Assembly (NCBI GenBank): GCA_037143195.1
Contig: JBAWZD010000001.1
Coordinates: 16,892 to 80,891, forward strand
DNA length: 64,000 nt
Direction of reading: 5' to 3'
From: a bacterium
GTDB lineage: Bacteria > Patescibacteriota > Minisyncoccia > Phycocordibacterales > UBA9973
Positions 3,116 to 63,296 of the stretch are shown in pieces. The number at the start of each line of letters is the position of its first letter. The stretch's first letter is position 1. Under the pieces are notes generated by a model. The model was not told the origin of the DNA, searched no databases, and saw only the letters and a list, made by a program, of their open reading frames with translations. A program made the translations under genes and the position numbers.

Positions 3116-4909
3116 ATGGACAAAAAAGACATCAGAAATATAGCTATTATCGCGCACGTTGACCACGGCAAGACCACTCTTACCGATGCTCTTTTGAAGT
3201 TTACAGGAGCTGTCGACGCAACCGCTTCAAGTATGGATTCGAACGACCTTGAAAAGGAACGTGGTATCACGATCTATTCCAAGAACTGTTCGCTCATGTA
3301 CAAGGGTACAAAAATCAACATTGTTGATACACCAGGACACGCCGACTTCGGTTCTGAAGTTGAACGTGTGCTTCGCTCGATCGACACCGTCCTCCTCATT
3401 GTCGATGCGCAAGAAGGTCCAATGCCACAGACACGATTCGTGCTCAAGAAGTCACTCGAACTCGGGCTCAAGCCAATCGTCGTCGTCAACAAAATCGACA
3501 AACCAGCTGCAAACCCAGAACAAGTTCACGAGCAAGTCCTCGAACTCTTCCTCGAACTCGGAGCAAACGATGAACAGCTCGATTTCAAAACTGTTTTTGC
3601 AATCGGCCGACAGGGCATAGCAAAACGTAATCTTACCGATGATTCAAAAGATCTCGCACCGCTCCTTGATATGGTGCTTGAGCTCGTCCCATCTGCAACT
3701 CGCGACGTGAATGCTCCTGCATGTGCACAAGTATTCAACCTTGCGTATGACTCATTCCTCGGACGTCTCGCCATCGCGCGTGTCTACGATGGAACACTCA
3801 AAGATGGATCAACAATTTTTGTAAAACACGGAGATACAACACGTCAGGCGAAAATTACAAAAATGTTTTCGTTCATTGGACAGAAACGTGAGCCAGTCTC
3901 TGAACTCGTTTCAGGAGACATTGGTATCGTTGCTGGTATCTCAGATGTTTACATCGGAGAAACAATTGCCGGAGACAATTCTGTCACTGCGCTTCCAACA
4001 ATCTCCATCGACGAACCAACAATCACACTCAGTTTCCTCGTGAACGACTCACCATTCGCAGGACGCGATGGTAAATTCGTCACTTCACGTCAGATTCGTG
4101 ATCGTCTCGAACGCGAGCTTCAGGTCAACGTTGGACTCAAAGTCGACTTCGATTCTGAAGCAACATTTCAGGTGTCCGGTCGTGGAGAACTCCACATCGC
4201 CGTTCTTCTTGAACAAATGCGCCGTGAAGGATTTGAAATGCAAGTCTCACAGCCAAAGGCAATCACCAAAGAAATTGATGGTGTAAAAAACGAACCATTC
4301 GAAGAGGCAACAATCGACGTTCCAATGGAATTCTCTGGAGCTGTTATCGAAACACTGACGAAGCGTCGCGGATTGCTCACTTCAATGACAGAAAAAGAAG
4401 GTATCGCGCGTATTCTCATCGAAATTCCAACTCGTGGATTGCTCGGTTACCGAAACCAATTCGTGATTGACACCAAGGGAGAGGGAATTCTTGCTTCACG
4501 TGTGATCGGATTCCGTCCATGGGCAGGTGAAATCAAGAAGAAGGAAGTTGGCGCCATGATCTCGATGATTTCTGGTTCAGCTGCTGGATTCTCGATTTGG
4601 AATCTTCAGGATCGTGGCACGATGTATATCGTCCACAATACGGAAGTTTACGAAGGAATGATCGTTGGAAACACCTCAAAGGGTGAAGACATGATGGTGA
4701 ACCCAATCAAAGGAAAGGCGCTCTCAAACGTTCGTGCTTCGGGAAGTGATGAGGCTATGTATCTCAACCCAGCATGGGAACTCACGATAGAACGTGGTCT
4801 TGAAGTTATGAACCACGACGAATATCTCGAAGTTACTCCGCACTTTGTACGCTTGCGTAAGAAGTTGCTCACAGAGACTGAGCGCTCACGCGGATCACGA
4901 AATCAATAA
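3116..4909 (+). CDS. typA: Translational GTPase TypA/BipA
   Basis: G-domain AHVDHGKTTL, DTPGHADF and NKID motifs. Length of 597 aa and EF-G-like domain order match BipA. Confidence 0.9.
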   Translation: MDKKDIRNIAIIAHVDHGKTTLTDALLKFTGAVDATASSMDSNDLEKERGITIYSKNCSLMYKGTKINIVDTPGHADFGSEVERVLRSIDTVLLIVDAQEGPMPQTRFVLKKSLELGLKPIVVVNKIDKPAANPEQVHEQVLELFLELGANDEQLDFKTVFAIGRQGIAKRNLTDDSKDLAPLLDMVLELVPSATRDVNAPACAQVFNLAYDSFLGRLAIARVYDGTLKDGSTIFVKHGDTTRQAKITKMFSFIGQKREPVSELVSGDIGIVAGISDVYIGETIAGDNSVTALPTISIDEPTITLSFLVNDSPFAGRDGKFVTSRQIRDRLERELQVNVGLKVDFDSEATFQVSGRGELHIAVLLEQMRREGFEMQVSQPKAITKEIDGVKNEPFEEATIDVPMEFSGAVIETLTKRRGLLTSMTEKEGIARILIEIPTRGLLGYRNQFVIDTKGEGILASRVIGFRPWAGEIKKKEVGAMISMISGSAAGFSIWNLQDRGTMYIVHNTEVYEGMIVGNTSKGEDMMVNPIKGKALSNVRASGSDEAMYLNPAWELTIERGLEVMNHDEYLEVTPHFVRLRKKLLTETERSRGSRNQ

Positions 4910-5630: not shown

Positions 5631-7166
5631 ATGAAAAATATTTTTCTTTCGATTAAGACATATTATCAGTCTCACCCAAAACGATTTTGGGTACTTGGTG
5701 CGATTATCTTCGTTGCTGTTTTGTACTCGATATTCCATACAACACCAAGCACCGTTACGGTCTATCCAGTCGCAAAAGCCGACTTACAATCCACGATTCT
5801 TGCCACAGGACAAGTGACGAGTGCGACTGATTTGAGTTTGTCATTCTCTGCAAGTGGAACGATTGATACGCTTCCTGTGTCAGTCGGTGACCGAGTCTCG
5901 CAGGGTCAAATCATTGCAACACTCAACAACGCAAGTGAATTTGCTTCGCTCAAATCTGCGCAAGCGAATTATCAAAAAGTTGTTGAAGGATCATCAAACG
6001 AAGAAATCGCTGTCGCTCAAGCATCACTTGATTCAGCGCGATCAAGCCTTGAAAGCGCAAAAAAAGTACAAGACAATTTGGTTGCGAGTGCGTATTCAGC
6101 AATGTTAAACAGTGATTTGGCACCTGAAACCGTATCAGGTTCAAGCACTGTTGCACCACTTTTGTCAGGAACGTATACAGGAAGTACACAGGGAGTCTAT
6201 ACGATAACCACATATTCGACAGGGAATGGAGGATACTTTTCATATGATGGAATCGAATCTGGAACTGGTCAAATTAATTCTGGCGCTGCGACTGCACTTG
6301 GAACACGTGGACTTTTTGTTCAATTCCCCTCGAGTGATTCGTTTGGAACGAATACATCGTGGAAGGTTACAATCCCAAATACAAAATCACCAAACTATCT
6401 TACTCGCTACAACGCATATCAAGACGCACTTAAGACACAAGACAGTGTCGTGACGGCAGCACAAGCAGCTGTGGTACAAGCGCAGGCGAATCTTGATTTG
6501 AAAAAGGCAGGTGCACGCTCAGCTGATCTTGCAATCGCAAACGCGCAAGTTCTTGCGGCACAGGCGACCTATGACAAAACAATCATTCGCGCTCCTGCAA
6601 GTGGAACTGTCGTTCACGTCGATTCAAAAATTGGTGAACAGGCAAAAGCGCAACAAGAAGTCGTAACGATTCAAGATGTTGGCAATTTGTATGTAGAAGC
6701 AAACATCAACGAAACAAACATCGCGCGAGTTGCTCTTGGTCAGCCAGTCAAAATGACGCTGGATGCTTTTGGTCCTGATACGATTTTTACCGGATCAGTG
6801 ATTCATATTGATCCATCATCAACGACAGCAGATGGAGTAGTGAACTACGTTATCAAGGCATCAATTCAAAACCCAGTATGCAAGGGCACGGATGTTTGCG
6901 TTAATCTCGTCAAAGACAAAGTTCGCCCTGGTATGAACGCAAACATGACTATCACTGCATGGGACAAACCTGACGCGATTGCCGTACCGAAGGCTGCTGT
7001 TATCAAAGAGAGTGACGGAACAACAAGCGTGAATGTGATTGTTGACGACAAGACAGGCGAATACAAAAAACAAAGCATCGTAACAGGGCTCGTTGGTGAT
7101 GGTGAACTCATTGAAGTCGTGAGTGGTCTCTCTGGCGGAGAGAAGATTGCAGTTGGTGCGAAGTAA
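5631..7166 (+). CDS. Efflux periplasmic adaptor (HlyD/MacA membrane-fusion family) carrying an extra ~100-aa inserted Gly/Thr-rich module
   Basis: N-terminal transmembrane anchor, lipoyl/beta-barrel MFP motifs (GTIDTLPVSVGDRVSQGQIIATL ... ASGTVVHVDSKIGEQ) and coiled-coil segments. Sits upstream of an FtsX permease and an ABC ATPase. Confidence 0.8.
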   Translation: MKNIFLSIKTYYQSHPKRFWVLGAIIFVAVLYSIFHTTPSTVTVYPVAKADLQSTILATGQVTSATDLSLSFSASGTIDTLPVSVGDRVSQGQIIATLNNASEFASLKSAQANYQKVVEGSSNEEIAVAQASLDSARSSLESAKKVQDNLVASAYSAMLNSDLAPETVSGSSTVAPLLSGTYTGSTQGVYTITTYSTGNGGYFSYDGIESGTGQINSGAATALGTRGLFVQFPSSDSFGTNTSWKVTIPNTKSPNYLTRYNAYQDALKTQDSVVTAAQAAVVQAQANLDLKKAGARSADLAIANAQVLAAQATYDKTIIRAPASGTVVHVDSKIGEQAKAQQEVVTIQDVGNLYVEANINETNIARVALGQPVKMTLDAFGPDTIFTGSVIHIDPSSTTADGVVNYVIKASIQNPVCKGTDVCVNLVKDKVRPGMNANMTITAWDKPDAIAVPKAAVIKESDGTTSVNVIVDDKTGEYKKQSIVTGLVGDGELIEVVSGLSGGEKIAVGAK

Positions 7167-24319: not shown

Positions 24320-24330
24320 AGTCTAGCGAA

Positions 24331-24370
24331 AGCGCGAAAAAACCCTTCTGTAGAAGGGTTTTTTCGCGCT
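24331..24370. terminator. Intrinsic terminator after rpoD; a 17-bp perfect stem includes the A6/T6 tracts
   Basis: agcgcgaaaaaaccctt / aagggttttttcgcgct with a 6-nt loop. Confidence 0.7.
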
Positions 24371-24432
24371 TGTTGCGCACTTTTGTTTTGTATGGTATTA
24401 TATGCATGTATTTGTTCTCACCAAATGTCCGT

Positions 24433-27917: not shown

Positions 27918-27956
27918 AAAAGGGCGGTTTTCGCGGAGCGAAAACCGCCCTTTTTC
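27918..27956 (+). terminator. Intrinsic terminator
   Basis: Perfect 13-bp stem gggcggttttcgc/gcgaaaaccgccc with loop gga, followed by T5. Confidence 0.8.
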
Positions 27957-31958: not shown

Positions 31959-31977
31959 TGAAACGAATTAATAAATC

Positions 31978-32006
31978 AAAAACCGGCATCATATGCCGGT
32001 TTTTGA
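31978..32006. terminator. Intrinsic terminator hairpin ccggcat/atgccgg with T5 on the + strand and A5 on the - strand
   Basis: Read directly. Separates the + strand gene from the minus-strand tRNA-Thr. Confidence 0.7.
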
Positions 32007-32019
32007 TTTGGGTATTGTC

Positions 32020-41806: not shown

Positions 41807-44407
41807 TTGAAAGATAAAGAACATCAAAACTGGATACGTGTGCGTGGCGCAAAAACGCACAATCTCAAAAATGTCGATGTCGATATGCCTCGAGACAAGA
41901 TGGTCGCTGTGACCGGAATGTCTGGATCAGGAAAGTCGTCGCTCGCATTTGATACGATATTTGCAGAGGGTCAACGTCGATACGTTGAGTCTCTGTCTTC
42001 GTATGCCCGACAGTTTTTGCAACAGATGCCGAAGCCTGAGGTGGAAGAAATTACCGGACTTTCTCCTGCGATTTCGATCGATCAAAAATCTCGCTCAAAC
42101 AATCCACGTTCGACTGTCGCGACGATCACGGAAATCTACGATTATCTCCGCGTGCTCTACGCACGTATCGGTCGACCATTTTCTCCAATCTCTGGACTTG
42201 AAGTAAAGAAACTTTCAAACCAAGAAATTTCTGATTTCGTTTTGAAAAAAGTAAAAGATGTTCTCAAGAATTCGAAAGGAAAAGAAAAGACGGTGATGGG
42301 TGTTTCGTGGGTTGATGCACCGATTTCAATTTACGCACCACTGGTGCGTGGACGAAAAGGTGAGTACTATCAATTGCTCTACGACATGCTTTCGAAGGGA
42401 TATGAAAAAGCACGCATCGATGGCGCTGAACACAATCTTCGTGATCGTATCGAGCTTTCAAAAAACGCAAAGCACGAGATTGATATTCTTGTGGATTCAT
42501 TTGCGGTGCACGAATTTACCGACAGACCAGCTGACATGGAAATGCGCTTGGCTGAGGCGATTGAACGCGCGATTCTTGAGAGTGACGGCCTCATTCGTAT
42601 CGTAACTCCTGAAGAAGATTCATTACTCTCGGCGAAGCTCGTGTGTCCAGAAGACGGCTACGTCTTCCCAGAAATTGAACCACGATTGTTCTCATTCAAC
42701 TCACCGTATGGAGCATGTCCTTCATGTAACGGTCTTGGAACAAAGCATTTTCTCGGTGGTGAACCATGTCCTGATTGTAAGGGAGCGCGTCTGCGCGAAG
42801 AAGCGCTCAACGTTTTTCTTGGTGGAAAGGAGCACGGAAAAAACATTGTTGATTTCACCACAATGACAGTGCGTGATGCGCACGAATTTTTGAAGACACT
42901 CAAGCTCACACCAAAAGAAAAAGAAATCGCTGCTGCAATCCTGAAAGAGATTGGAGACCGTGTGCAATTCATGCTCAACGTCGGCCTCGACTATCTCGGA
43001 CTTGATCGCCGTGCGAATACACTCAGTGGTGGAGAATCACAGCGTATTCGTCTCGCATCCCAACTCGGCTCACGCCTCGTCGGTGCCATGTACGTGCTCG
43101 ACGAACCGACCATCGGTCTGCATCAGCGCGACAACGACAAACTCATCGCAACACTTCTTGAACTTCGTGATCTTGGAAACACAATCATCGTCGTTGAACA
43201 TGATGAGGATACCATTTATGCGTCTGACTATATCGTTGATATTGGTCCAGCTGCCGGAGTTCATGGTGGAAATATTATAGAAAGTGGCTGGCTCGATACG
43301 TTGCTCACTGCAAAGACCAATCCGTCTGGCAGTCGTACACTCGCATATTTGCGCGGGGAAGCAAAAATTCCTGTACCAGAAAAACGTCGCGAAGCAGACA
43401 AAGGCAAACTCCAGATCGTTGGCGCAAAAATTCACAATATCGACAACATAAACGTAGACATTCCACTCGGTCGTCTCGTCTGTATCACTGGGGTGTCGGG
43501 AGCAGGAAAGTCGTCATTCATGGACGATGTCCTTGCGGCAAATCTTTCCGCGCAATTCGACAAAAAATATCGCTCAAACAATATTTACAATTGCTCGAAA
43601 TTCCTCGGCCGTGAATATCTCACTCGTGCAATTTTGATTGATCAGAGCCCAATCGGACGTACGCCTCGCTCAAACATTGCGACCTACACTGGCGCATGGA
43701 GTCATATCCGCGACATGTTTGCTGAGACAGAAGAAGCACGACTGCGTGGCTGGAAGGCAAATCGATTTTCATTCAATGTGAAAGGCGGACGCTGTGAAGC
43801 CTGTGAAGGTCGCGGTGTCATAGCGGTTGAAATGCATTTTTTGCCGACTGTCTACGTCACCTGTGATGTCTGTAATGGCAAACGCTTCGACAAAGAAACA
43901 CTCAAAATTAAATTTAAAAAGAAGAATGTATTCGAGGTGCTCGAAATGACTGTCGAAGAAGCGAATGTATTCTTCCGTGATATTCCAGCAATCAGTGACC
44001 GCTTGCAGACGTTGCTCGACGTTGGACTCGGCTATATCAAAATCGGACAAAACGCGACGACGCTCTCTGGCGGAGAAGCTCAGCGTGTCAAAATCGCAAG
44101 TGAACTGTATCGTCCGTTTATTCACAAGGCGATGTATTTGCTCGATGAACCAACGGTTGGATTGCATTATGACGACGTTGCGAATCTCGTTGATGTGTTG
44201 CAGAAACTCGTCGACCGAGGCAACACTGTTGTCGTTATCGAACACAACCTCGATCTTATCAAGTGTGCCGATCACCTCATCGACTTCGGACCAGAAGGAG
44301 GGGACAAAGGTGGAAAAATCGTTGCCAAAGGAACGCCAGAAGAAGTGGCGAATAACGCAAAATCACACACTGGGTACTATCTCAAAAAAGTACTGAAGAA
44401 AAAATAG
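41807..44407 (+). CDS. uvrA: Excinuclease ABC subunit A (compact, 866 aa, TTG start)
   Basis: Two ABC modules (GMSGSGKSS / GVSGAGKSS, signature LSGGESQR / LSGGEAQR) and zinc modules (CPSCNGLG...CPDCKG; CEACEGRG...CDVCNG). Confidence 0.93.
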
Positions 44408-47192: not shown

Positions 47193-47228
47193 GCAACAAA
47201 AAAACGCCGAATGGCGTTTTTTTGTTGC
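47193..47228. terminator. Bidirectional intrinsic terminator with a 16-bp perfect stem gcaacaaaaaaacgcc/ggcgtttttttgttgc
   Basis: Read directly. It sits between the pilin gene (+) and tRNA-Ala (-). Confidence 0.8.
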
Positions 47229-47467: not shown

Positions 47468-50400
47468 ATGGACTGGCTTTCTGATTTTGCTAGCCGTATC
47501 CAAGAGAAACTCGATAAATATACGCGCGAGTTTTTTGTCGTGACTACTCATTTTTTGAATCGAATTACGAAGCGTTTAGGCAGTTCTTTTACGTTTACAA
47601 AAGAAAAAACACGCATATCGGTGATTGGACTTGTTGTAGTACTTGTCACTTCGTCTATCATTTTTGCTCCACATAGTTCTGCGACGGTTTCTGATTTTTA
47701 TCCAGGTACTTGTTCTGGTGGGTGGCTCAATCCTCAGAATGCCACTGGTTTACCGTCACTCGATGGGGTGCAGCCTGCGAATAGCTATACAGAAAAAAAT
47801 TCTGCTGTGCTTAATAATTCACATTCTGATATCGTTTGTAATAACTTTGCCGGAAATATTCCAAGTGGAACAAATCCAAAAACATTTACGGTTAAATTCC
47901 ATTGGTCGATTGACGACGGATCTGTTGCACATGATGGGGTGTCTACTCCCACACCAGCTACGACAACAGATGTTATTTCTGCACCAGCTACGACGTCTCA
48001 ATCACCAAGCGACACCACCACAGCTACACAAACTCCAACCGATACAAAAACTACAACTGACACAACAATCCCTGCATCAACAATCACGACACCAACACCA
48101 ACACCAACTTCAGACACGACAACGACTCCACCAGCTACACCAGTAATCACACCTGATGCAACTCCGGTAGTTCCAGCAACTCCGGTACTTACTGCGCCAA
48201 CTACTTCGTCCGATACTCAGCCCGCAGCAGACACGACAATTCCAACAACAACGCCTGCGGCTACTACTGCAACAACCGATCAACCAAAGACAGTAGCGTC
48301 TGCATTCAAAAAAACACTTGCAACTCTCGATGCGCTTGTAACGGACGCGTTGAGTGCTGGTGACACAACAATGTTTCATTCTCCAAGTGATATGTTTGTC
48401 GTTCGCTATTCCGTAGACGGAACTAACTGGAACGATATTGGCACAGTCAATGCTGCAAATTGGCAGACTGCTACGTTTACGATATCTGGGCCAGACATCG
48501 CAGGATGGAGTGATCTTTCAAAATTACATGTTGGACTTTTTAGTCTTTCTCCTGATGGAACACAGCCTGTTGTGTATATCGATGCTGTTGAAGTCGATGT
48601 TGATTATGCTGATGCGAGCACTTCAGTTATCGTTCCGACAGTGAAAGTCGTCGACCCGTCTATCTCAATCGTTGCTCCGCAAAAAGATAATTTTACTTTG
48701 GATGAGGCACCGGTGTTTTCTATCACTAACCCAAATCTTTCAACTGCTCAAATTTTACACCTTGTTCAAAATGACAAAGCCGTCGTTGTTGACGACCACT
48801 TGGGTGTTTTTTCTGAGACAGCACCCAAAACGATACCAACGCAACCTCCGACGAGTCAGACAGATACAGGCCCGACAAGTTCGACTTTGACAGCACCAGC
48901 GCAATCTCCAAGCGACACCACCACAGCTACACAAACTCCAACCGATACAAAAGCTACGGCTGATACAAAAGTTCCCACTGATACAAAAACTACAACTGAC
49001 ACAACAATCCCTGCATCAACAATCACGACACCAGAACCAACACCAACACCAACACCAACTTCAGACACGACAACGACTCCACCAGCTACACCAGTAATCA
49101 CACCTGATGCAACTCCGGTAGTTCCAGCAACTCCGGTACTTACTGCGCCAAGTGAAACAACATCAGCTCAAACTGTAACGCCAGCACCAGTATCGGCGCC
49201 TGTTCAACCAGTTTCAGATTTGAATAGCGCGATTTCGACGAGTACGGCAGATTCTTCAAACCTCGGCGCGTTTGCTGTTGGTGCGCTTGGATCGGATATC
49301 ACTGGCGTCCAAGCGTTTCAGAAAGTTGATTTCAAGCACCTATTTGCGAACACCGTTCTGCGCTATTACAGCATGATGCGACAGGTATTTCGTATGTCGT
49401 TTGCAAACGCATTGCTTGCGCTTGCGGGGGACACGGCATCATCACCAATCGATGCTGTGGTGCTCGATGCTTCAGGCAATCAAACGACGATTGCAGTTAC
49501 AGTACAACATGTGGTCGTGAATGGTGTTGGTCAAGATCAAGTTGTCGTCAGTAAGCCTGACAATATGTTTCGTCCTGGAAAATATACGCTTCAAGTTACA
49601 TTACATACTCCCGACGTGAATATCATTTCCGAACAAGATTTTTCATGGGGCGTACTTGCAATCAACGTTGATCGTTCCGTCTATCACGCAGGAGACACCG
49701 CGTATGTACAGATGGGTGTGATTGACGACTTTGGGCATACAATCTGTGATGCCGACATGACGCTCGTTATTACGAGTCCATTTGGTGTTGATCAGACATA
49801 CACGACGAGTGATGGGACTGTCGTACGCGAACCGCAATGTGGACCGGACAATTATATTCATGTCCCTGATTACTATGCACATCCCCATATTGGGAGCGAG
49901 GAAGGTGTGTATCATATGACACTCACGGCGAATACGCGAAATGGTATTCGTACGGTACACGATGCGTTTACGGTCAGCTCTGATATTCCATTTGATGTTG
50001 TGCGTAGTGGTCCGACTCGTGTGTATCCGGCCGATAAGTATCCGGCAGAAATGCAGATTACTTCGCCTGTCGATTGGCAGGGAACAATCGTTGATACGCT
50101 ACCGAGTTCTTTTGAGGTGAGTGCGCTCGATGGAGTGGCTCTGTATGATACTGTGACGACGACTGGTGATACAACGACGGTGACATGGAATGTTTCGCTC
50201 GTCGCAGGCAAAACAACAACTATCGGATATTCATTCTTGCCGCCACCAATCAGTCCAGAATTTTATTTGCTCGGACCGCTCACTTTTTATAATAAAGGTG
50301 ATGACAGTACGACTGCCATTCCGGTCTTTAAAGAAATGCGTCGTTGGCAAATCGCAGACGATTCTTCATGTACATATATCGGTCCAGCGATTGGATTTTG

Positions 50401-53400
50401 GAATAATGCGAGTAACTGGAGTTGTTTACGTGTGCCAACAACGGGCCCAAATAGTGATACGGTAACAATTCCGACTGGAAATACTGTTACTCTCGACACG
50501 AACACACCAGCAACTGGTGGTGCGCTTACCTTACTTACTATTGCGGGGACACTAAAGACAGGATCTGCTGGTGTTGATTACAATATAAATACTACGGCTT
50601 TAACCATAAGTAGTGGAGGTGTTTTGAATGCAACTTCGGCCGCTTCGGGTTCGACGATCATTATTAACGGGAGCGGGACGGGTGCAGGTCGCCCATTTCA
50701 GAATGCCGGAACATTTACGCCCGGAACTTCTACTTTTCAATATGTTACTTCAGGTACTGATATCGAGGCTACTACGTATTATAACCTTACCATCAATGGT
50801 GGATCTGGAAACGACACATTAAATGGCGATACTATTGTTACGAATAATCTTTTGGTGGGAAACGCGAGTAGTGGTGTTGCCTTTTCTACATCAGCAACTT
50901 CCAATTATCGCCTTACTGCAGGACACATCACATTAGGTCCTGTATCTGCGGGCAGTATGACCTTCGCTGCGAATGCCTCAACTATTACCCTTACTGGTGA
51001 TACCTCTTTGCCACTGTTTACCAATAGTGTCGCTGGGGGCAGTACTGCCTTCATTGCTGGAACTTCAACAATTTCTGTTACGAGTGATTATAGCGGTGTA
51101 ACTATTTTTGGAGGATTGGCCACTAACTTTTACAATATCACGTTACAGCCAAACTTTTCCGCTGCTACCTGTGCTTCTGGAACATGTAATTATTCAGTCG
51201 GGGTTTTGCCGACAGTAGCAGCAGCAGGTCTATTTGACGTAAAACCGAACGGATCGGGGCATACGTTAACAGTTGACGTAAATACTATTGCAACGAATTC
51301 AACTTTTGGCGCTTCAGCTACTGTTAAAATAGAAGGCACCGCGGGCGCTTCTGGCGTCCTGACAGGGTCCGGATGCGTGTATACTGCGAGTACGTTGCCA
51401 ACGTTTTATGGGGTGATAACAACTTTGAACGGAGCAAGTGGGTTAGGAACATCGTTTTTAGTTAATTCGTCTGCTGGCATTGTTCCGGGAGAGCCAATAC
51501 AGATTGACTCAGAAGAGATGCTTGTGAATACCGTTGTTGGTTCAACGCTTAATGTTACTCGTGGTTTGAATGGAACCTCGATTGTGAGTCATGCGACTTC
51601 TGCCATAGTTATTGAACCATATCAGCCAATGGGGACGCCGTGTTATACAAAAACAATTGATGTCGAGTCCGGAGGCACGTTTAGCGGATCTTCGACATTT
51701 TTTGAGGTCTCAAATATTTTGGTCGGGAACGGAGGACAATTCAATGCAGGTTCATCCTCATTTATTTATACAGATGGTCTTATTAGTTCGAATCAAATTC
51801 TGATTTCGAGCGGAGGTACATTTAATGCAGGAAGTAGTATTATAAATATAGGTGGAGATAATACGTTACAAAGTACTGGTACTACAAATACTTTTATAAC
51901 GAATAATGGTACATTCACCGCTGGAACTTCAACTGTCTATTTTAATATGGTAAATAATGGTTCGGCAGTTAATCAAATTTACAATGCTGGTTTGTGGACA
52001 GGCAGCAACAAGTTTTATAATCTTGCTCTGAATACGTATGTTCCAGGTACAAATAATTATCAATTGGGAGCTGATACTGAAGTTGCAAATATCGTATCAT
52101 ATGGTAGATGGGGGGCTCGATTAGATACAAATAATTTTAATTTAACTGTTGGGTATGTTGATTTTTGCCATTCTCTCGGACTGGGGGCATTTATTGTTAC
52201 GAATGCTTCGGGCACCAAAAGTGTAACGCTCAACGGTGCATCAGGAACATTGTTTAATAATGTGAATAGTGGTACTGGAGCCTTTGCAAAAACGTGTACT
52301 GGAGCATCTGCTATGACTACGACAACTGCGAATTTCGCAGTAACGAGCAATGCGAGTGTGACTATATTTGGGGTGTCTGCAATTTCATTTACAAATTTAA
52401 CCTTCGCTCCTCCTGCACTGCTAGCTGATGCAACATACACAATGGGTATTGTGCCGACACTCTCAGGTAGTTTAACAAGTAATCCATTGTCGCCGAGTGG
52501 CACCCCAACGCTCTTACTTTCTGGAGCATTAACAATTCCAGCAGCAAAAACGTTCACGGTTTCTGGAGATAGCCACACAAGTACAAAATTGTTGAGTAAT
52601 TATAGTGTGGGGCTCGTCTCAATTGCGTCAACTGGTATTCTTCTGGCAAATACTACAACATTGACGATAACAGGTACATCTGGAACTTTATTTGCAAACA
52701 GTGGAACATTTACGCCTGGGACTTCGACTGTGACGTTTGGTGGAGCGAGTGTAAGCGCAACTTTGGACTCGGGCAACTTTGCTATTAGTGGTACCTCAAC
52801 AAATAACTTTTACAACCTCACGATAACTGGCACAGGTACATTTACCCTTGGTGCGCCAACTGAAGTGACCGGTACTTCTGGTATTTCTCTTCCAGCGAAC
52901 GTAACACTTGATGCTTCGTCTTCGGCATGTTCAGGTTTAAGTTGTAACATTACGGCAGCAACTATTTTTATTACAAGTAATGCTGGTTCAATATTCAACG
53001 CAAGAAATGCAACTATCAAGTTGACTGGTACCGGAACTCCTGCAACACTCTTCACACGCGGTTCCGCAGGAGTGTTTACTGCGGGTACTTCGACGGTCCA
53101 AGTCATGACTCCGTCAGGAGTGGCACGTTTCCTCTCTGGTGCGGGAACGGTATTTTATAACGTGACGATCGGGGATGCCGGAGTCAGTGCCACTGTTGTA
53201 AATGCGGGAGACAACTTCACTATTGCGAGTGGAGGTACATTTTACTTGAAGAATGGCAGTTTTGATCTCGACGGTTCTACAGTTGCTGTGATTACGGCAT
53301 CGTCATCGACGACCATGCGCATGGATTCTGGTACGCTCTTTTGTATTGGAGGTACGACTGGTGCCTCGGCGCTCGCCGATTGTACCGGAGGTGTGGCTTC

Positions 53401-54169
53401 GACTGGTGCACTCGCATCTGCTCCAGCATTCACGACATTTACCTTTGCTTCAGGTTCAACAATCAAATACTTGAATGCTGCAGCCCAGACTGTTTTCACT
53501 GCATTCCCATACGTTAACCTTACGGTTGCACCGATAGTGGCAGCAGCTACGACATATGCAATGACGGCTGCATCGATGACGGTGAACGGCAATCTTACGG
53601 TCAATCCGACAGGATCTGCGTTTGCGTTTGTGTGGAATATGTCTGGTTCGATTGCGATTACCCCGCAGGATGGTACGACAAGCGCAGTAAACGAAATGCT
53701 GATTAAAAAATCAGGCTCAGTCACATCTGTTACGGTAAACACGAACAATAATACAATTACGACAGGTACGATGGATATCGAGTCGGGCGCGACACTTAGC
53801 GCTGGTTCGTCCAATATTACAGTGCCGGGCAACTGGATTTGTAACGGGACGTTCACTTCAGGTACTTCAAGCGTTCTCTTGAGTAACACGATCACCACAC
53901 TTCCATCATCAACACTCACTACCGTTGGGGGAATCAACAGTGCCGTTCTCTCATTTTCTGTCGCATCCGGGACCGGCATTGTCGCGGGGGAAACGATTCA
54001 GATTGATAACGAAATGATGCAGGTGACAGCAGTCAGTGGAACGACAGTTACCGTCGCGGCTCGTGGAGCAAACGGCACGGCAGCTATCAGTCACTCAGCC
54101 GGAGCGACGGTGCTAGTCATTGTCGGCGTTGTATCAGGAACAACGTCATTCGCAAACTTGATCATCTAA
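47468..54169 (+). CDS. Giant (2233 aa) cell-surface protein: N-terminal anchor, Thr/Pro mucin-like repeats, and a long array of predicted parallel beta-helix-like Gly/Thr/Ser/Asn-rich repeats
   Basis: A single uninterrupted ORF. Signal-anchor helix (ISVIGLVVVLVTSSIIF). The recurrent motif F.NAGTFT.GTSTV appears at least five times. A duplicated ~45-aa module GE.IQID.E.M.V...G.T..V.RG.NGT..SH..A occurs near aa 1360 and at the C-terminus. Confidence 0.8.
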   Translation: MDWLSDFASRIQEKLDKYTREFFVVTTHFLNRITKRLGSSFTFTKEKTRISVIGLVVVLVTSSIIFAPHSSATVSDFYPGTCSGGWLNPQNATGLPSLDGVQPANSYTEKNSAVLNNSHSDIVCNNFAGNIPSGTNPKTFTVKFHWSIDDGSVAHDGVSTPTPATTTDVISAPATTSQSPSDTTTATQTPTDTKTTTDTTIPASTITTPTPTPTSDTTTTPPATPVITPDATPVVPATPVLTAPTTSSDTQPAADTTIPTTTPAATTATTDQPKTVASAFKKTLATLDALVTDALSAGDTTMFHSPSDMFVVRYSVDGTNWNDIGTVNAANWQTATFTISGPDIAGWSDLSKLHVGLFSLSPDGTQPVVYIDAVEVDVDYADASTSVIVPTVKVVDPSISIVAPQKDNFTLDEAPVFSITNPNLSTAQILHLVQNDKAVVVDDHLGVFSETAPKTIPTQPPTSQTDTGPTSSTLTAPAQSPSDTTTATQTPTDTKATADTKVPTDTKTTTDTTIPASTITTPEPTPTPTPTSDTTTTPPATPVITPDATPVVPATPVLTAPSETTSAQTVTPAPVSAPVQPVSDLNSAISTSTADSSNLGAFAVGALGSDITGVQAFQKVDFKHLFANTVLRYYSMMRQVFRMSFANALLALAGDTASSPIDAVVLDASGNQTTIAVTVQHVVVNGVGQDQVVVSKPDNMFRPGKYTLQVTLHTPDVNIISEQDFSWGVLAINVDRSVYHAGDTAYVQMGVIDDFGHTICDADMTLVITSPFGVDQTYTTSDGTVVREPQCGPDNYIHVPDYYAHPHIGSEEGVYHMTLTANTRNGIRTVHDAFTVSSDIPFDVVRSGPTRVYPADKYPAEMQITSPVDWQGTIVDTLPSSFEVSALDGVALYDTVTTTGDTTTVTWNVSLVAGKTTTIGYSFLPPPISPEFYLLGPLTFYNKGDDSTTAIPVFKEMRRWQIADDSSCTYIGPAIGFWNNASNWSCLRVPTTGPNSDTVTIPTGNTVTLDTNTPATGGALTLLTIAGTLKTGSAGVDYNINTTALTISSGGVLNATSAASGSTIIINGSGTGAGRPFQNAGTFTPGTSTFQYVTSGTDIEATTYYNLTINGGSGNDTLNGDTIVTNNLLVGNASSGVAFSTSATSNYRLTAGHITLGPVSAGSMTFAANASTITLTGDTSLPLFTNSVAGGSTAFIAGTSTISVTSDYSGVTIFGGLATNFYNITLQPNFSAATCASGTCNYSVGVLPTVAAAGLFDVKPNGSGHTLTVDVNTIATNSTFGASATVKIEGTAGASGVLTGSGCVYTASTLPTFYGVITTLNGASGLGTSFLVNSSAGIVPGEPIQIDSEEMLVNTVVGSTLNVTRGLNGTSIVSHATSAIVIEPYQPMGTPCYTKTIDVESGGTFSGSSTFFEVSNILVGNGGQFNAGSSSFIYTDGLISSNQILISSGGTFNAGSSIINIGGDNTLQSTGTTNTFITNNGTFTAGTSTVYFNMVNNGSAVNQIYNAGLWTGSNKFYNLALNTYVPGTNNYQLGADTEVANIVSYGRWGARLDTNNFNLTVGYVDFCHSLGLGAFIVTNASGTKSVTLNGASGTLFNNVNSGTGAFAKTCTGASAMTTTTANFAVTSNASVTIFGVSAISFTNLTFAPPALLADATYTMGIVPTLSGSLTSNPLSPSGTPTLLLSGALTIPAAKTFTVSGDSHTSTKLLSNYSVGLVSIASTGILLANTTTLTITGTSGTLFANSGTFTPGTSTVTFGGASVSATLDSGNFAISGTSTNNFYNLTITGTGTFTLGAPTEVTGTSGISLPANVTLDASSSACSGLSCNITAATIFITSNAGSIFNARNATIKLTGTGTPATLFTRGSAGVFTAGTSTVQVMTPSGVARFLSGAGTVFYNVTIGDAGVSATVVNAGDNFTIASGGTFYLKNGSFDLDGSTVAVITASSSTTMRMDSGTLFCIGGTTGASALADCTGGVASTGALASAPAFTTFTFASGSTIKYLNAAAQTVFTAFPYVNLTVAPIVAAATTYAMTAASMTVNGNLTVNPTGSAFAFVWNMSGSIAITPQDGTTSAVNEMLIKKSGSVTSVTVNTNNNTITTGTMDIESGATLSAGSSNITVPGNWICNGTFTSGTSSVLLSNTITTLPSSTLTTVGGINSAVLSFSVASGTGIVAGETIQIDNEMMQVTAVSGTTVTVAARGANGTAAISHSAGATVLVIVGVVSGTTSFANLII
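48003..48200 (+). repeat. Copy 1 of a ~200-bp near-identical intragenic direct repeat (copy 2 at 48906-49150 carries two short in-frame insertions)
   Basis: DNA-level identity read directly: ...accaagcgacaccaccacagctacacaaactccaaccgatacaaaa... ...ccggtagttccagcaactccggtacttactgcgcca. It encodes QSPSDTTTATQTPTDTK...TPVLTAP twice. Confidence 0.85.
48906..49150 (+). repeat. Copy 2 of the intragenic direct repeat
   Basis: See copy 1. Confidence 0.85.
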
Positions 54170-58399: not shown

Positions 58400-58462
58400 A
58401 AACCAAAACCGCCACCCGATAGGGTGGCGGTTTTGGTTTGAATGCGTTAAAATATATCTGTT

Positions 58463-59698
58463 GTGAAGCACTCAATTTTCCCAAAAAAAATCAGACGAGC
58501 GTTTAGTATTCTTTTTGTCTGTACGTTTGTGCTTGGATTACTTCCTCAAACTTCTTTTGCTACTCCATCACCAATTTCAGATGGCGTTACGATTTCTGCT
58601 CAGGTCGTAAGTGTCGGTTCAGTTGTTCCTCCGACGGTCACTACAGATCATCCATTGGTGACTGTGAGCGACAACGGGGCGACGTTGCTCGGAACACTCT
58701 CCGACGGTGGAGATTCTGCTGTGACAACCGAAGGATTTGAATATGGACTCGCGTCGCCTTCATATGGAACGACAACGACTTCAACATCAGTTGGTTTTGG
58801 TAATGGACAATTCAACGCGATCATAACGGGTCTCGTATGTGGCACGACGTATCACTATCGTGCGTATGCAGAAAACGGTGCCGGTCGTGCATACGGAACA
58901 GACCAAACATTTACAACGAATGATTGTTCTGTGAATGTACTTCCAGTCACTTCCCCGGGGAATGGAGGAATACTTACTGCGTCGGCGGTAAACTTTTCTG
59001 GCTTTGCATACCCAGGAGCGACAGTGACAATCCTGCGTGACGGCGTAATTGTTTCAAATGTTCTTGCGGATTCATCCGGAGCGTTTCTGTCGCCGGTGTC
59101 GGGAATTCAAGCAGGTTCATATGTTTTTTCTATCTATGCAAAAGATCAGAATGGTGTTGTGTCAGCGTCCACGACATTTCCATTTGTCTTGAATGGAAAA
59201 TCAGTCGTGAATATTACCAACATATTGGTTGCTCCGACAATATCAGCAGACAAGACGATTGTGCAGTCAGGCGACACACTCACTGTTTCCGGTTTCGCTA
59301 CTCCGTACGCAAAAGTTGCAATCACGAGTAAACAATTGACCACCGTGTACGACGCTATCGCTGATGCTGGTGGCCGATATCAATATCAGATTGATGCATC
59401 AGCGCTCGCAACTGGTGCCTACACCATGCACGCCATTGATATTGTTGCGGGGCAGAGTAGTCCTATCAGTAAAGGTATTCTCTTTTTGATGGGCCTCTCG
59501 ACGACCAAAGTAAAAGAGACCAATCTCGGATGCGCAGGCGGTGATTTAAATGGAGATGGCAAAGTGGACATCATCGATTATTCAATCATGAAATATTGGT
59601 ACAAAAAACCAAATCCACCAGCATGTGTTGATCTCTCTGGCGATGGAGCGATCAACTTGAAAGATTTTAGTATCCTCGCTTCTGATTGGACAGGATAA
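58463..59698 (+). CDS. Secreted multi-Ig/FN3-like protein with a C-terminal dockerin-type duplicated calcium-binding module
   Basis: Signal peptide. The C-terminus carries DLNGDGKVDIIDYSIM ... DLSGDGAINLKDFSIL, two dockerin-like Ca-binding loops. Confidence 0.65.
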   Translation: MKHSIFPKKIRRAFSILFVCTFVLGLLPQTSFATPSPISDGVTISAQVVSVGSVVPPTVTTDHPLVTVSDNGATLLGTLSDGGDSAVTTEGFEYGLASPSYGTTTTSTSVGFGNGQFNAIITGLVCGTTYHYRAYAENGAGRAYGTDQTFTTNDCSVNVLPVTSPGNGGILTASAVNFSGFAYPGATVTILRDGVIVSNVLADSSGAFLSPVSGIQAGSYVFSIYAKDQNGVVSASTTFPFVLNGKSVVNITNILVAPTISADKTIVQSGDTLTVSGFATPYAKVAITSKQLTTVYDAIADAGGRYQYQIDASALATGAYTMHAIDIVAGQSSPISKGILFLMGLSTTKVKETNLGCAGGDLNGDGKVDIIDYSIMKYWYKKPNPPACVDLSGDGAINLKDFSILASDWTG

Positions 59699-60684: not shown

Positions 60685-61599
60685 ATGCATATCGTAAACG
60701 CTATTTTGATTGTTCTCGGTCTCGCGATTTTTGAAATTGTCTCAAGTATCGACAATGCCGTCATCAATGCTGAAATTCTCGACACGATGAGTGCTCGTGG
60801 ACGCAAGTGGTTTATGCTTTGGGGATTTTTGTTTGCAGTCTTTGCGGTTCGTGGACTACTTCCATGGGTCATCATCTGGGCGACGAATCCTTCACTCGGA
60901 GCTGTTGGAGCGTTGACTGCAACGTTCTCAAACGATCCTCGCATCGCGGCTTCTATTGCACAATCAGCGCCACTCTTGCTCGCGGGCGGGGGAATATTTT
61001 TGGTATTTCTTTTCTTGCATTGGCTTTTCTTGGAACCAAAACAAATCGGTTTGCATCATGAACGATTCTTTTTGCGTCAGGGTGTGTGGTTTTACGGAGT
61101 CGCTGCGGTCATTCTCTCTATTGTCGTTTGGTATGGACTCAAAACAAATCCCATCATGGCGTTTGGAGCAGTCATTGGTTCCACTGCATTTTTCATCATG
61201 CATGGATTCAAAGAAAATGCCGAGCGCGCAGAAGAGAAACTCAAGAGCGGGGAGAGCAGTCGCTCTGATCTCTCAAAAATTTTGTACCTCGAAATTATTG
61301 ACGCATCGTTTTCTATCGACGGTATTTTGGGTGCATTCGCATTCACGCTCAGCGTGCCCTATATCTTGATTGGGAACGGAATCGGCGCCTTCGTCCTCCG
61401 CGAGCTCACCGTCAAAAATATCGACACCATCAAGAAATATGTCTTCCTCAAAAACGGCGCCATGTACGCCATCGGTGCACTCTCCATAATCATGCTCCTC
61501 GGCGCCTTCGGCCACGAAATCCCAGAATGGGTCTCACCTCTCGTCATGCTAGTAATTGTAGGTTATTTCTTCCATAAATCGAAAAAGGTAATTCGATAA
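60685..61599 (+). CDS. TerC/DUF475-family integral membrane protein
   Basis: Multiple TM helices. The SIDNAVINAEIL and IDASFSIDGILGAFAF paired motifs are typical of the TerC/DUF475 superfamily. Confidence 0.6.
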   Translation: MHIVNAILIVLGLAIFEIVSSIDNAVINAEILDTMSARGRKWFMLWGFLFAVFAVRGLLPWVIIWATNPSLGAVGALTATFSNDPRIAASIAQSAPLLLAGGGIFLVFLFLHWLFLEPKQIGLHHERFFLRQGVWFYGVAAVILSIVVWYGLKTNPIMAFGAVIGSTAFFIMHGFKENAERAEEKLKSGESSRSDLSKILYLEIIDASFSIDGILGAFAFTLSVPYILIGNGIGAFVLRELTVKNIDTIKKYVFLKNGAMYAIGALSIIMLLGAFGHEIPEWVSPLVMLVIVGYFFHKSKKVIR

Positions 61600-61736
61600 A
61601 AAGTCGGGGAAAATTTTAAAAATGTACTTTGCGAAGCACCCGCGGAGCGCGACGGCGCGAGCGTGAGGCGAAATTTCTTCAGAAATTTACGCCGGTGCTT
61701 CGCAAAGTACATTTTTAAAATTTTCCCCGACTTTTT
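61598..61736. repeat. 43-bp perfect inverted repeat (arms 61598-61640 and 61694-61736) around a 53-nt spacer that has its own nested palindrome (aaatttcttcagaaattt)
   Basis: The left arm aaaaagtcggggaaaattttaaaaatgtactttgcgaagcacc is the exact reverse complement of the right arm. It overlaps the TerC-like stop codon and the guaA -35 element. Confidence 0.9.
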
Positions 61737-61763
61737 GCCAAAAATACCCTTTGTATGTATAAT
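61735..61763 (+). promoter_or_regulatory. Candidate sigma70 promoter TTGCCA-17 nt-TATAAT for guaA
   Basis: Hexamers at 61735-61740 and 61758-61763. The ATG is at 61770. Confidence 0.45.
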
Positions 61764-61769
61764 CATTTC

Positions 61770-63296
61770 ATGGATACAATTCTCATCTTGGATTTCGGAG
61801 GTCAGTCGTGCCATCTTATTTCTCGCCGTTTGCGTGATTTTGGTGTCTACGCCGAAGTGCTCCCATCAGACTATTCTGCCAAACAAATCATGGCGCGTCC
61901 TGAAGTAAAGGGCGTCATTCTCTCGGGGGGTGCTCGTTCCGTCTATGAGAAGAACGCTCCCGAATTCGACAAGGCCATTTTCAATCTCGACATGCCACTT
62001 TTTGGTATTTGTTACGGTCACCAACTCCTCGCCAAACAGCTCGGCGGTACGGTAGAAAACGGCACAGTTGGTGAATATGGTCAGCAGACACTCGCCATCA
62101 CCAAGAAGACTGGACTCTTTGCAGGACTCTCAGCAAAAGAAAAAATCTGGATGAACCACAAAGATGTCGTTACAAAAATGCCTGAAGGATTTACGGTCAT
62201 CGGCAAGACATCACACTCGGCAATCGCTGCGTACGCATCAAAGGACAACAAACGCGTCGGTGTGCAATTCCACCCAGAAGTCAGTCACACCGATCACGGC
62301 ACCGAAATGCTCAAGAATTTCGCCGTGAACATTTGTAAGATCAAACCGACCTACACATCTGCAAACTTGCTCAAAGAAACAATCAAAGAAGCTAAAGATA
62401 CGATGGGTGACGAACGTGCCGTCATTGGTCTCTCGGGTGGAGTGGATTCATCTGTTGCCGCAGCGCTCGTCGCGCGTGCCATCGGCGAGAATCTCACTGC
62501 GGTCTATGTAGACACAGGACTCATGCGTGAAGGTGAGACCGACTATCTCCGCAAAGCATTTGGAGACAAAGGCCTCAAGCTCATCATCGTCGATGCAGCC
62601 AAAGAATATTTCACCGCACTCAAAGGTGTGACTGATCCAGAAACAAAGCGCAAAATCATTGGAACACTCTTCGTTCGTATTTTTGAACGCGAAGCAAAGA
62701 AGACGAAGGCACAGTGGCTCATCCAAGGTACGATTTATTCTGATCGCATCGAAAGTGGTCTCACGAAACATTCTGCAAACATCAAGAGTCACCACAACGT
62801 CGGAGGACTGCCAAAAGATTTGGGACTCAAACTCTATGAACCACTTCGTGATCTCTACAAAGACGAAGTACGCACACTCGCGAAGACACTCAAACTTCCA
62901 AAAGAAATCACCGACAGACAGGTCTTCCCAGGCCCAGGTCTTGCGATTCGTATCATTGGTGAAGTGACTCCAGAGCGTGCCGCTATCGTCCGTAAGGCAG
63001 GGCACATCATCGAGAGCGAGCTCATGCACACGAAACATTGGAAAGATATTTGGATGAGTTTTGCGGTATTCCTTCCGGTGCAGTCTGTCGGTATCTCAGG
63101 TGACGAACGTTCGTACAAGCATCCGCTCGTCCTTCGTATCGTTGAATCGCGCGATGCCATGAGTGCAAACTTTGCCAAGCTTCCGTACGAAATTCTTGAG
63201 ACCATCTCAACTCGTCTCACAAACGAAATCAAAGAAATCAACCGTGTCGTCTACGACATCACCAACAAACCACCAGCAACAATGGAGTGGGAATAG
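61770..63296 (+). CDS. guaA: GMP synthase (glutamine-hydrolysing)
   Basis: GATase1 (ILILDFGGQS...CYGHQL), an ATP-PPase SGGVDSSV loop, and the C-terminal dimerisation domain. The 61770 start is preferred because the -10 box overlaps the 61755 ATG. Confidence 0.92.
   Translation: MDTILILDFGGQSCHLISRRLRDFGVYAEVLPSDYSAKQIMARPEVKGVILSGGARSVYEKNAPEFDKAIFNLDMPLFGICYGHQLLAKQLGGTVENGTVGEYGQQTLAITKKTGLFAGLSAKEKIWMNHKDVVTKMPEGFTVIGKTSHSAIAAYASKDNKRVGVQFHPEVSHTDHGTEMLKNFAVNICKIKPTYTSANLLKETIKEAKDTMGDERAVIGLSGGVDSSVAAALVARAIGENLTAVYVDTGLMREGETDYLRKAFGDKGLKLIIVDAAKEYFTALKGVTDPETKRKIIGTLFVRIFEREAKKTKAQWLIQGTIYSDRIESGLTKHSANIKSHHNVGGLPKDLGLKLYEPLRDLYKDEVRTLAKTLKLPKEITDRQVFPGPGLAIRIIGEVTPERAAIVRKAGHIIESELMHTKHWKDIWMSFAVFLPVQSVGISGDERSYKHPLVLRIVESRDAMSANFAKLPYEILETISTRLTNEIKEINRVVYDITNKPPATMEWE

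Follow-up and report, generated by a model that had tools for sequence, protein, structure and literature searches.

An unusually large, probably terminator-type palindromic hairpin between a DUF475/TerC-family gene and guaA in a Patescibacteriota genome

RESULTS

A 139-base hairpin lies between a DUF475/TerC-family gene and guaA

We analysed a 64,000-nucleotide stretch of a Patescibacteriota genome (Minisyncoccia, Phycocordibacterales, UBA9973; assembly GCA_037143195.1, contig JBAWZD010000001.1, positions 16,892 to 80,891), referred to below as the window, and within it a 139-base palindromic element located between a gene for a DUF475/TerC-family membrane protein and guaA, the GMP synthase gene. 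The junction comprises the following features.

60685-61599, plus strand: DUF475/TerC-family membrane protein gene (Pfam DUF475, E=2e-50; TerC, E=2.9e-15)
61598-61736, plus strand: whole element, a 139-base hairpin, intergenic between the DUF475/TerC-family gene and guaA
61598-61640, plus strand: left arm, 43 nt, consisting of the A-run AAAAA, the GC-rich GTCGGGG, an A/T-rich tract and then TGTACTTTGCGAAGCACC
61641-61665, plus strand: apical hairpin A, CGCG GA GCGC-GACG-GCGC GAG CGTG, seen in both the minimum free energy and the centroid structures
61667-61693, plus strand: apical hairpin B, GGCG AAATTTC-TTCA-GAAATTT A CGCC
61694-61736, plus strand: right arm, 43 nt, with CCCCGAC at its end and then TTTTT (61732-61736)
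61735-61763, plus strand: predicted guaA promoter (TTGCCA, 17 nt, TATAAT; 11/12 matches), downstream of the hairpin and outside it
61770-63296, plus strand: guaA (GMP synthase; GATase and GMP_synt_C domains), conserved start ATG 61770 (MDTILILDFGG)

A preliminary description of this locus had reported arms of 43 bp with no mismatch, and indeed 61598-61640 is the reverse complement of 61694-61736 at 43/43 positions. Pairing reaches 47 nt with one mismatch (61598-61644/61690-61736), and the stem, of 43-47 bp, is far longer than that of a normal terminator, as had also been noted. The 53-nt spacer (61641-61693), in which a second palindrome and GC-rich self-complementary segments had been seen, holds AAATTTC-TTCA-GAAATTT (61671-61688) and the GC-rich GCGC-GACG-GCGC hairpin, and both fold into hairpins. 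The overall shape is thus a long stem and a three-way junction with two small hairpins on top. The two overlaps described for the arms proved to be 2 nt each: the left arm shares two nucleotides with the TAA stop codon of the upstream gene (61597-61599), and the last two T of the right arm are the first two bases of the predicted guaA -35 hexamer TTGCCA (61735-61740).

The fold-energy calculation that the preliminary description had proposed gave -93.9 kcal/mol for the element RNA, compared to -37.9 +/- 3.6 kcal/mol for shuffled sequences (z = -15.6). The RNA of the complementary strand folded at -93.1 kcal/mol and the single-stranded DNA at -66.3 kcal/mol (z = -16.2). Shuffles yielded an expectation of 0 matches to the arm sequence, and the runner-up perfect inverted repeats of the window had arms of 20, 18, 17, 17 and 16 nt. 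The hairpin is real, very stable and far beyond chance.

An assembly artefact was ruled out because complete orthologous copies are spanned by several independent scaffolds from related loci (designated by L numbers), obtained from other samples and with other assemblers (L004, L005, L008-L011 and L012). In addition, each of two k=31 Logan contigs of another assembly contains a single arm beside its own unique flank. Short-read contigs end in an arm or at its inner edge (the end of L001, the start of L002 and the ends of L006, L007 and L013), and both Logan contigs terminate 31 nt into each arm. We discarded these breaks as a sign of repetition, reasoning that a de Bruijn graph breaks at any inverted repeat exceeding k=31, irrespective of copy number. 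The element fragments metagenome assemblies, and similar elements elsewhere may be hidden.

Orthologous copies retain the pairing while changing its sequence

A homologous element was found at the same place in L004-L007, L008-L011, L012-L013 and L038, whose DUF475 proteins are 91-96% identical to that of the window. Identity of these relatives to the window was 0.82-0.87 for DUF475 DNA, 0.86-0.90 for guaA DNA and 0.55-0.71 at third-codon positions, values that exclude close strains. The element itself was 0.82-0.92 identical (L004 and, after flipping as described below, L012), similar to the flanking coding DNA (0.72-0.93 in 60-nt windows) and clearly above third-codon identity (0.55-0.67). 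L038 carries rpsL instead of guaA downstream of the element and still DUF475 upstream, indicating that the element travels with the 3' end of DUF475.

Across the five lineages, 62 pairs were counted and 91.8% of the cells were paired. Both sides had changed in 12 of the 62 pairs, a number reached by none of 500 shuffles, and slid controls gave 0-2. Three lineages have perfect arms that differ in sequence, with folds of -94, -92 and -87 kcal/mol. The arm alleles include GTCGGGG/CCCCGAC versus GTCGGAG/CTCCGAC, and TTTGCGAAGCAC versus TTTGTAAGGCAC or TTTGCAAGGCAC; the stem base of both L004 and L012 is GTCGGAG/CTCCGAC followed by TTTTT. In these three lineages, each change on one arm is mirrored on the opposite arm, and the 43 stem pairs contain no G-U. 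The best conserved stretch of the arms is the A/T tract AAAATTTTAAAAAT.

The centre of the element is also maintained. Hairpin B is 100% paired in 5/5 lineages, with two pairs changed on both sides, and the core of hairpin A, GGAGCGCGACGGCGCGAG, is identical in L004, L005 and L008-L011. In the L008 group and L038, the long stem has decayed (-49 and -45 kcal/mol, respectively) but both apical hairpins are intact. As a separate observation, a contig whose DUF475 protein is identical to that of L004 ends in a differing left arm (L006, 1913-1943; GAAAAATTTAAAAATTTACATT versus GAAAATTTTAAAAATGTACTTTG). It could represent another fast-changing variant of the arm, or an error where a contig of low coverage ends.

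One lineage carries a flipped centre and another an outward extension

Relative to the other lineages, L012 has its 53-61-nt centre in reverse-complement orientation between collinear flanks. The covariance model described below scored 151 bits on the minus strand of L012 and 86 on the plus strand. Orientation of the centre was constant within a lineage, with L004, L005 and L007 agreeing over three samples and L008-L011 over four. The flip leaves both the long stem and the T-run unchanged, the two strands of L012 fold alike (-87.4 and -86.2 kcal/mol), and the inversion is probably without consequence.

The repeat of L008 (3909-3947 and 4038-4076) has decayed in the middle and extended outward, its left flank now containing the guaA -35 region in inverted form (TTTTGGCAAAAA versus TTTTGCCAAAAA). 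Compared with the other lineages, L008 also has 10 nt inserted in the DUF475 3' end. Template switching has been reported to yield perfect stems, multi-base compensatory changes and loop inversions (PMC8794818), and hairpin-associated small inversions, typically of 4-50 bp, are common in plastid DNA (PMC12371153).

The junction is empty or differently occupied in other relatives

The element is absent from L016 and L017 (DUF475 protein, 88%), in which 4 nt follow the stop codon before TTTTGCCAAA, TATAAT and the ATG of guaA, and from L040 (guaA, 90%), in which a predicted promoter comes directly after the DUF475 stop. The intergenic gap between DUF475 and guaA is 41 nt in L016 and 30 nt in L040. 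Elsewhere the neighbourhood itself differs: L041 has an additional gene at the junction, and in L018 gdh directly follows DUF475. Just upstream of DUF475 in L018 (2749-2977), back-to-back tRNA-Ala genes (GGC and TGC) on opposite strands form an inverted repeat of 25-28 nt. From these empty and alternative sites, the window-type element appears to have been gained in one clade.

L039 (DUF475, 88%) preserves the DUF475-guaA order and has an unrelated nested palindrome of about 130 nt at this position (3918-4050; -93 kcal/mol), with perfect inner arms of 25 nt and outer arms of 6 nt and 14 nt. The window-element covariance model gave no match to this palindrome, and its patterns were absent from the window and from the viral contigs scanned. 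Giant hairpins would therefore seem to have arisen at the DUF475-guaA junction at least twice.

Two further palindromes follow DUF475 in L014, one of which recurs 2 kb on. The recurring palindrome, TTAACAAT-N-C-N-CGTCAGCTGACG-N-G-N-ATTGTTAA, stands after two different genes (3912-3951 and 5849-5886) and looks like a small family of that genome resembling repetitive extragenic palindromic (REP) sequences. Its pattern did not occur in the window.

No second copy was found in the data searched

The copy search in the source genome covered the 64-kb window, and the scans of sequence collections required exact 18-23-mers. Within the window, the arm sequence occurred only as the two arms themselves, and the centre motifs once each, apart from an unrelated match with three mismatches to the GC-rich 18-mer at 42782. 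The exact arm 21-mer had one match in 596 Gb of species-representative genomes, to a single arm, in an unrelated coding region of a 1.9-kb contig, and a degenerate 23-mer covering all arm alleles had seven matches in JGI metagenomes, all to single arms in unrelated AT-rich contexts; we treated both results as chance. In viral contigs, the arm and AT-rich centre hairpin patterns were unmatched and the GC-rich 18-mer of the centre had 7 matches, probably by chance. One of the seven was on a 65,766-bp contig with the length of Gordonia phage GRU1, to which BLAST aligned only 27 nt of the element, and a plasmid BLAST gave no match.

We then built a covariance model from the five orthologous copies (139 positions, 62 pairs). 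Over 168 kb, comprising the window and 18 related loci, it recovered at E <= 10 the orthologous copies and no second copy. A protein search with the 83-aa spurious open reading frame that reads through the element, intended to catch miscalled copies, found nothing. No target-site duplication was detected: the flanks TTCGAT (left) and GCCAAA (right) share no direct repeat, and comparison of the L016 empty site with the element flanks disclosed no duplicated bases. A permissive Rfam scan of 61000-62300 (E <= 10) returned no credible family, its best matches being non-specific long hairpins such as a plant microRNA precursor model (47 bits versus a gathering score of 211), and the gathering-level scan of the whole window found two tRNAs only. 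The element is single-copy in all data searched. Thus, of the multiple copies that the preliminary description had proposed to look for, none appeared in the window, the loci of relatives or the collections, and the search of relatives did uncover orthologous copies.

Ordinary terminators of the same genome share the layout of the element

Five shorter perfect palindromes of the window, with arms of 16-20 nt, were taken as ordinary terminators.

24330-24371: perfect palindrome, ordinary terminator, adjoining a stop codon directly
27918-27954: perfect palindrome, ordinary terminator
31973-32009: perfect palindrome, ordinary terminator
47193-47228: perfect palindrome, ordinary terminator
58400-58439: perfect palindrome, ordinary terminator, adjoining a stop codon directly

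All five sit after stop codons and include an A-run and a T-run in their stems. The palindrome at 58400-58439 is about 90% conserved and perfectly palindromic in L004 and L012, with one change mirrored on both arms (AAACCAAAA/TTTTGGTTT versus AATCAAAA/TTTTGATT); in L008 and L016, unrelated hairpins stand in its place. Judged by layout and by these changes, the 139-base element follows the pattern and the evolution of the ordinary terminators, with more than twice their stem length and a branched apex.

The guaA promoter and the neighbouring genes

Genes are packed closely in a row along the window, nearly all of them on the plus strand, at 42-49% G+C, and the closest DUF475 proteins belong to uncultured bacteria of the Parcubacteria/Paceibacteria type. 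The region 61730-61789, which includes the predicted promoter, has the window's sequence without change in L004 and L012 (100% identity) and is 95% identical in L008, and in L016, which has no element, a promoter of the same layout comes right after the DUF475 stop codon. The mechanical open reading frame and the public gene call start guaA at ATG 61755, which overlaps the -10 hexamer TATAAT (61758-61763). The conserved ATG 61770 lies 6 nt past this hexamer and has no Shine-Dalgarno sequence. In L016, L039, L040 and L041, guaA starts at ATGGATAC with the same spacing from the -10 hexamer to the ATG and no upstream ATG. Given that ATG 61770 is only 6 nt after the -10 hexamer, the guaA mRNA is probably leaderless, and gene callers probably place the start too early.

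Within about 5 kb, the upstream genes encode Ig/dockerin surface proteins and hypothetical proteins; on the downstream side are guaA and genes for an ABC transporter, glutamate dehydrogenase and type-IV coupling proteins. The precomputed Pfam hits of the called genes over about 5 kb on either side included no transposase or recombinase domain. A 2233-aa open reading frame and surface proteins with Ig/dockerin domains lie upstream (window positions 47468-54169 and 58463-59698). About 6 kb downstream, the element is followed by genes for type-IV secretion coupling proteins (T4SS-DNA_transf, DUF87; L002, 5868-6590), which stay near DUF475 in distant relatives (L018); no link between them and the hairpin was found.

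DISCUSSION

The element as an oversized terminator-type hairpin

With moderate confidence, we interpret the element as a single-copy, lineage-specific, oversized hairpin of the intrinsic-terminator type at the 3' end of the DUF475/TerC transcript. An unusually long terminator is favoured because the element is single-copy where searched and has the position and pattern of the ordinary terminators; the evidence thus points towards the outcome that the preliminary description had set against its own candidates. The covarying arms, the flipped centre, the empty sites and the unrelated giant palindrome at the same junction are comparative facts beyond that description. Termination itself is something we infer from the anatomy and context of the hairpin. 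On leaving DUF475, RNA polymerase would transcribe from the left arm through both apical hairpins into the right arm. At that point the 47-bp stem would zip, its GC-rich base GTCGGGG/CCCCGAC closing just before UUUUU, and transcription would stop. The adjacent guaA promoter would be shielded from read-through, and the very stable 3' hairpin left on the upstream mRNA may stabilise the DUF475 transcript.

The perfection of the arms would be a by-product of processes at the DNA level and not a functional requirement. One mismatch in a 47-bp stem barely changes its stability, so that selection on RNA folding is an implausible reason for 43 perfect pairs. For this reason, we attribute the perfect arms, the matched changes, the outward growth and the flip to DNA copying between the arms. 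Template switching in replication, or recombination or gene conversion between the arms, may copy one arm onto the other, and such copying could produce the matched changes on both arms, the outward growth in L008 and the inversion of the centre in L012.

Several observations weigh against this interpretation. A branched 47-bp stem is far outside the normal size of terminators, and the consensus terminator scan did not call the element. L016 and L040 have no hairpin of any kind between DUF475 and guaA, so a terminator at this junction is not essential. A 135-nt palindrome is absent as a whole from these empty sites; it must have come as one unit or been built up stepwise, and its arrival in one step would suit a mobile origin better. 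The apical hairpins are kept in L008 and L038, where the long stem has decayed, and the centre could thus have a function of its own. The evidence on copy number in the source genome spans 64 kb of a contig listed at 451,635 bp, the scans of collections relied on exact words, and termination at the T-run is predicted from sequence.

Alternative explanations

The strongest alternative, which we nevertheless consider unlikely, is a miniature mobile element, similar to miniature inverted-repeat transposable elements (MITEs) or to REP doublets forming hairpins (REPINs), that inserted in the ancestor of the clade, may have copies elsewhere in the genome and has terminator activity only secondarily. 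The junctions of L016 and L040 are empty with the same gene order, the entire 135-nt unit being missing as expected for a one-step insertion, and MITEs typically have long terminal inverted repeats. The unrelated palindrome of similar size at the same L039 junction suggests a hot spot, and L014 has a small family of repeated palindromes with two copies within 2 kb. Against this, no second copy emerged from the window, from the covariance model over 168 kb, from the genome, metagenome, viral, phage and plasmid scans or from the protein search with the spurious reading frame, and every copy seen is orthologous. The flanks lack a direct repeat, and the Pfam hits include no transposase or recombinase within about 5 kb. 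The MITE candidate of the preliminary description consequently lost ground for want of both a further copy in the data searched and a target-site duplication.

A bolder version of this idea, to which we give somewhat less credence still, would make the junction a hot spot colonised at least twice, in the window clade and in L039, by unrelated palindromes of about 130-140 nt. These would represent an undescribed class of self-maintaining, possibly mobile elements of the candidate phyla radiation, in which a process at the DNA level keeps the arms perfect and flips the centres.

It is improbable, to a slightly greater degree, that the palindrome is functionally neutral, having originated by a replication error and been kept by template switching or gene conversion with no role in transcription. 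It is dispensable in L016 and L040, its arms have decayed in L008 and L038, and Watson-Crick arms free of G-U in three lineages suit DNA copying better than selection for RNA stability. However, the element is 82-92% identical across lineages with a third-codon identity of only 55-67%, and on population-genetic grounds lineages should diverge no more slowly under gene conversion alone. The apical hairpins also keep their pairing through compensated changes.

We regard as quite improbable an independently functional structured RNA, for example a processed small RNA or a protein-binding element of the 3' untranslated region in which the three-way junction is functional. The two centre hairpins occur in all five lineages, even with a decayed long stem, and GGAGCGCGACGGCGCGAG is identical in L004 and the L008 group. 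Yet no Rfam family matches, a separate promoter for such an RNA would not fit on the plus strand, and the plus-strand RNA of L012 has the complement of the junction, which is hard to reconcile with a sequence-specific role. The small structured RNA suggested in the preliminary description fared poorly on the same grounds, the lack of an Rfam match and the inverted L012 centre.

An equally doubtful and more speculative proposal places the role in the DNA, as a cruciform or protein-binding palindrome, or with the right arm acting as an UP-like A/T tract (ATTTTTAAAATTTT, at about -59 to -46) for the guaA promoter. The arms are perfect in DNA, the single-stranded DNA folds at -66 kcal/mol, and the conserved tract AAAATTTTAAAAAT is at the position that an UP element has relative to the predicted -35. 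However, the gene downstream of the element in L038 is not guaA, the promoter occurs in L016 and L040 where the element is missing, and neither a binding protein nor a motif family emerged as a candidate for what is pure inference.

Least probable of all is a programmed invertible switch (inverton), in which expression would be varied by a recombinase that inverts the 53-nt centre lying between the 43-nt repeats: a segment flanked by repeats does occur in both orientations among lineages, but its orientation is fixed within a lineage across samples, the centre (61641-61693) has no promoter-like site, fold and T-run are the same either way, the Pfam hits show no recombinase within about 5 kb, and 53 nt is very short for recombinase-mediated inversion.

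Four other candidates were rejected. A riboswitch or attenuator of guaA is contradicted by a predicted promoter downstream of the hairpin, an apparently leaderless guaA, rpsL in its place in L038 and no Rfam match; the first three of these also dispose of the attenuator coupling the two genes that had been put forward in the preliminary description. An integron attC site was dismissed given the perfect arms, the lack of GTTRRRY ends and the absence of a cassette context, and a replication origin or terminus given that no GC-skew switch was seen near 61.6 kb. A terminal hairpin of the parvovirus type was discarded because the element occupies an internal site, flanked by DUF475 and guaA in a compact row of bacterial genes.

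Relation to known systems

Among known systems, the element shares with intrinsic (Rho-independent) terminators, including the bidirectional type with an A-run and a T-run, a position abutting the stop codon on the coding strand, a GC-rich base and a T-run mirrored by an A-run. It departs from them in a stem of 43-47 bp instead of about 5-20 bp and in an apex formed by a three-way junction (branched, 45 nt) instead of a loop of 3-8 nt; it folds at -94 kcal/mol and escaped the consensus scan. Like MITEs, REP sequences and REPINs, it is a short, non-coding, intergenic unit with a long hairpin that is present or absent at orthologous sites. Unlike them, it was found in one copy and has no target-site duplication, and neither a transposase nor a REP-associated tyrosine transposase (RAYT) was seen near it.

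The T-shaped terminal hairpins of parvoviruses, of about 140 nt, have the order A-B-B'-C-C'-A' and exist in flip and flop forms, and the likeness of the element to them is in shape only; it lies inside a bacterial chromosome, with a housekeeping-type gene on each side, and not at the end of a linear single-stranded DNA genome, and no Rep/HUH nuclease gene was seen. Invertons share the inverted repeats around a segment found in both orientations, but in the element the orientation is fixed within lineages, the 53-nt segment lacks a promoter and no recombinase gene is nearby. With plastid small inversions and template-switch hairpins, the element has in common a centre reversed between unchanged arms, matched stem changes without intermediates and extension outward. 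Compared to plastid small inversions of 4-50 bp (PMC12371153), its inverted segment is 53-61 nt long and itself structured, and a shared mechanism would be deduced from the pattern.

Implications

This element is most probably not a new kind of system, and represents an unusually large palindromic hairpin of the terminator type with concerted evolution of its stem and one inversion of its centre. If the terminator interpretation is true, its role would be mostly ordinary, as a transcription stop and an insulator between two genes. The unrelated giant palindrome at the same junction in the sister lineage L039 is one point perhaps worth further work. The element also offers a clean natural case of how long perfect hairpins can persist and change, and a useful test case for models of template switching and gene conversion in bacteria.

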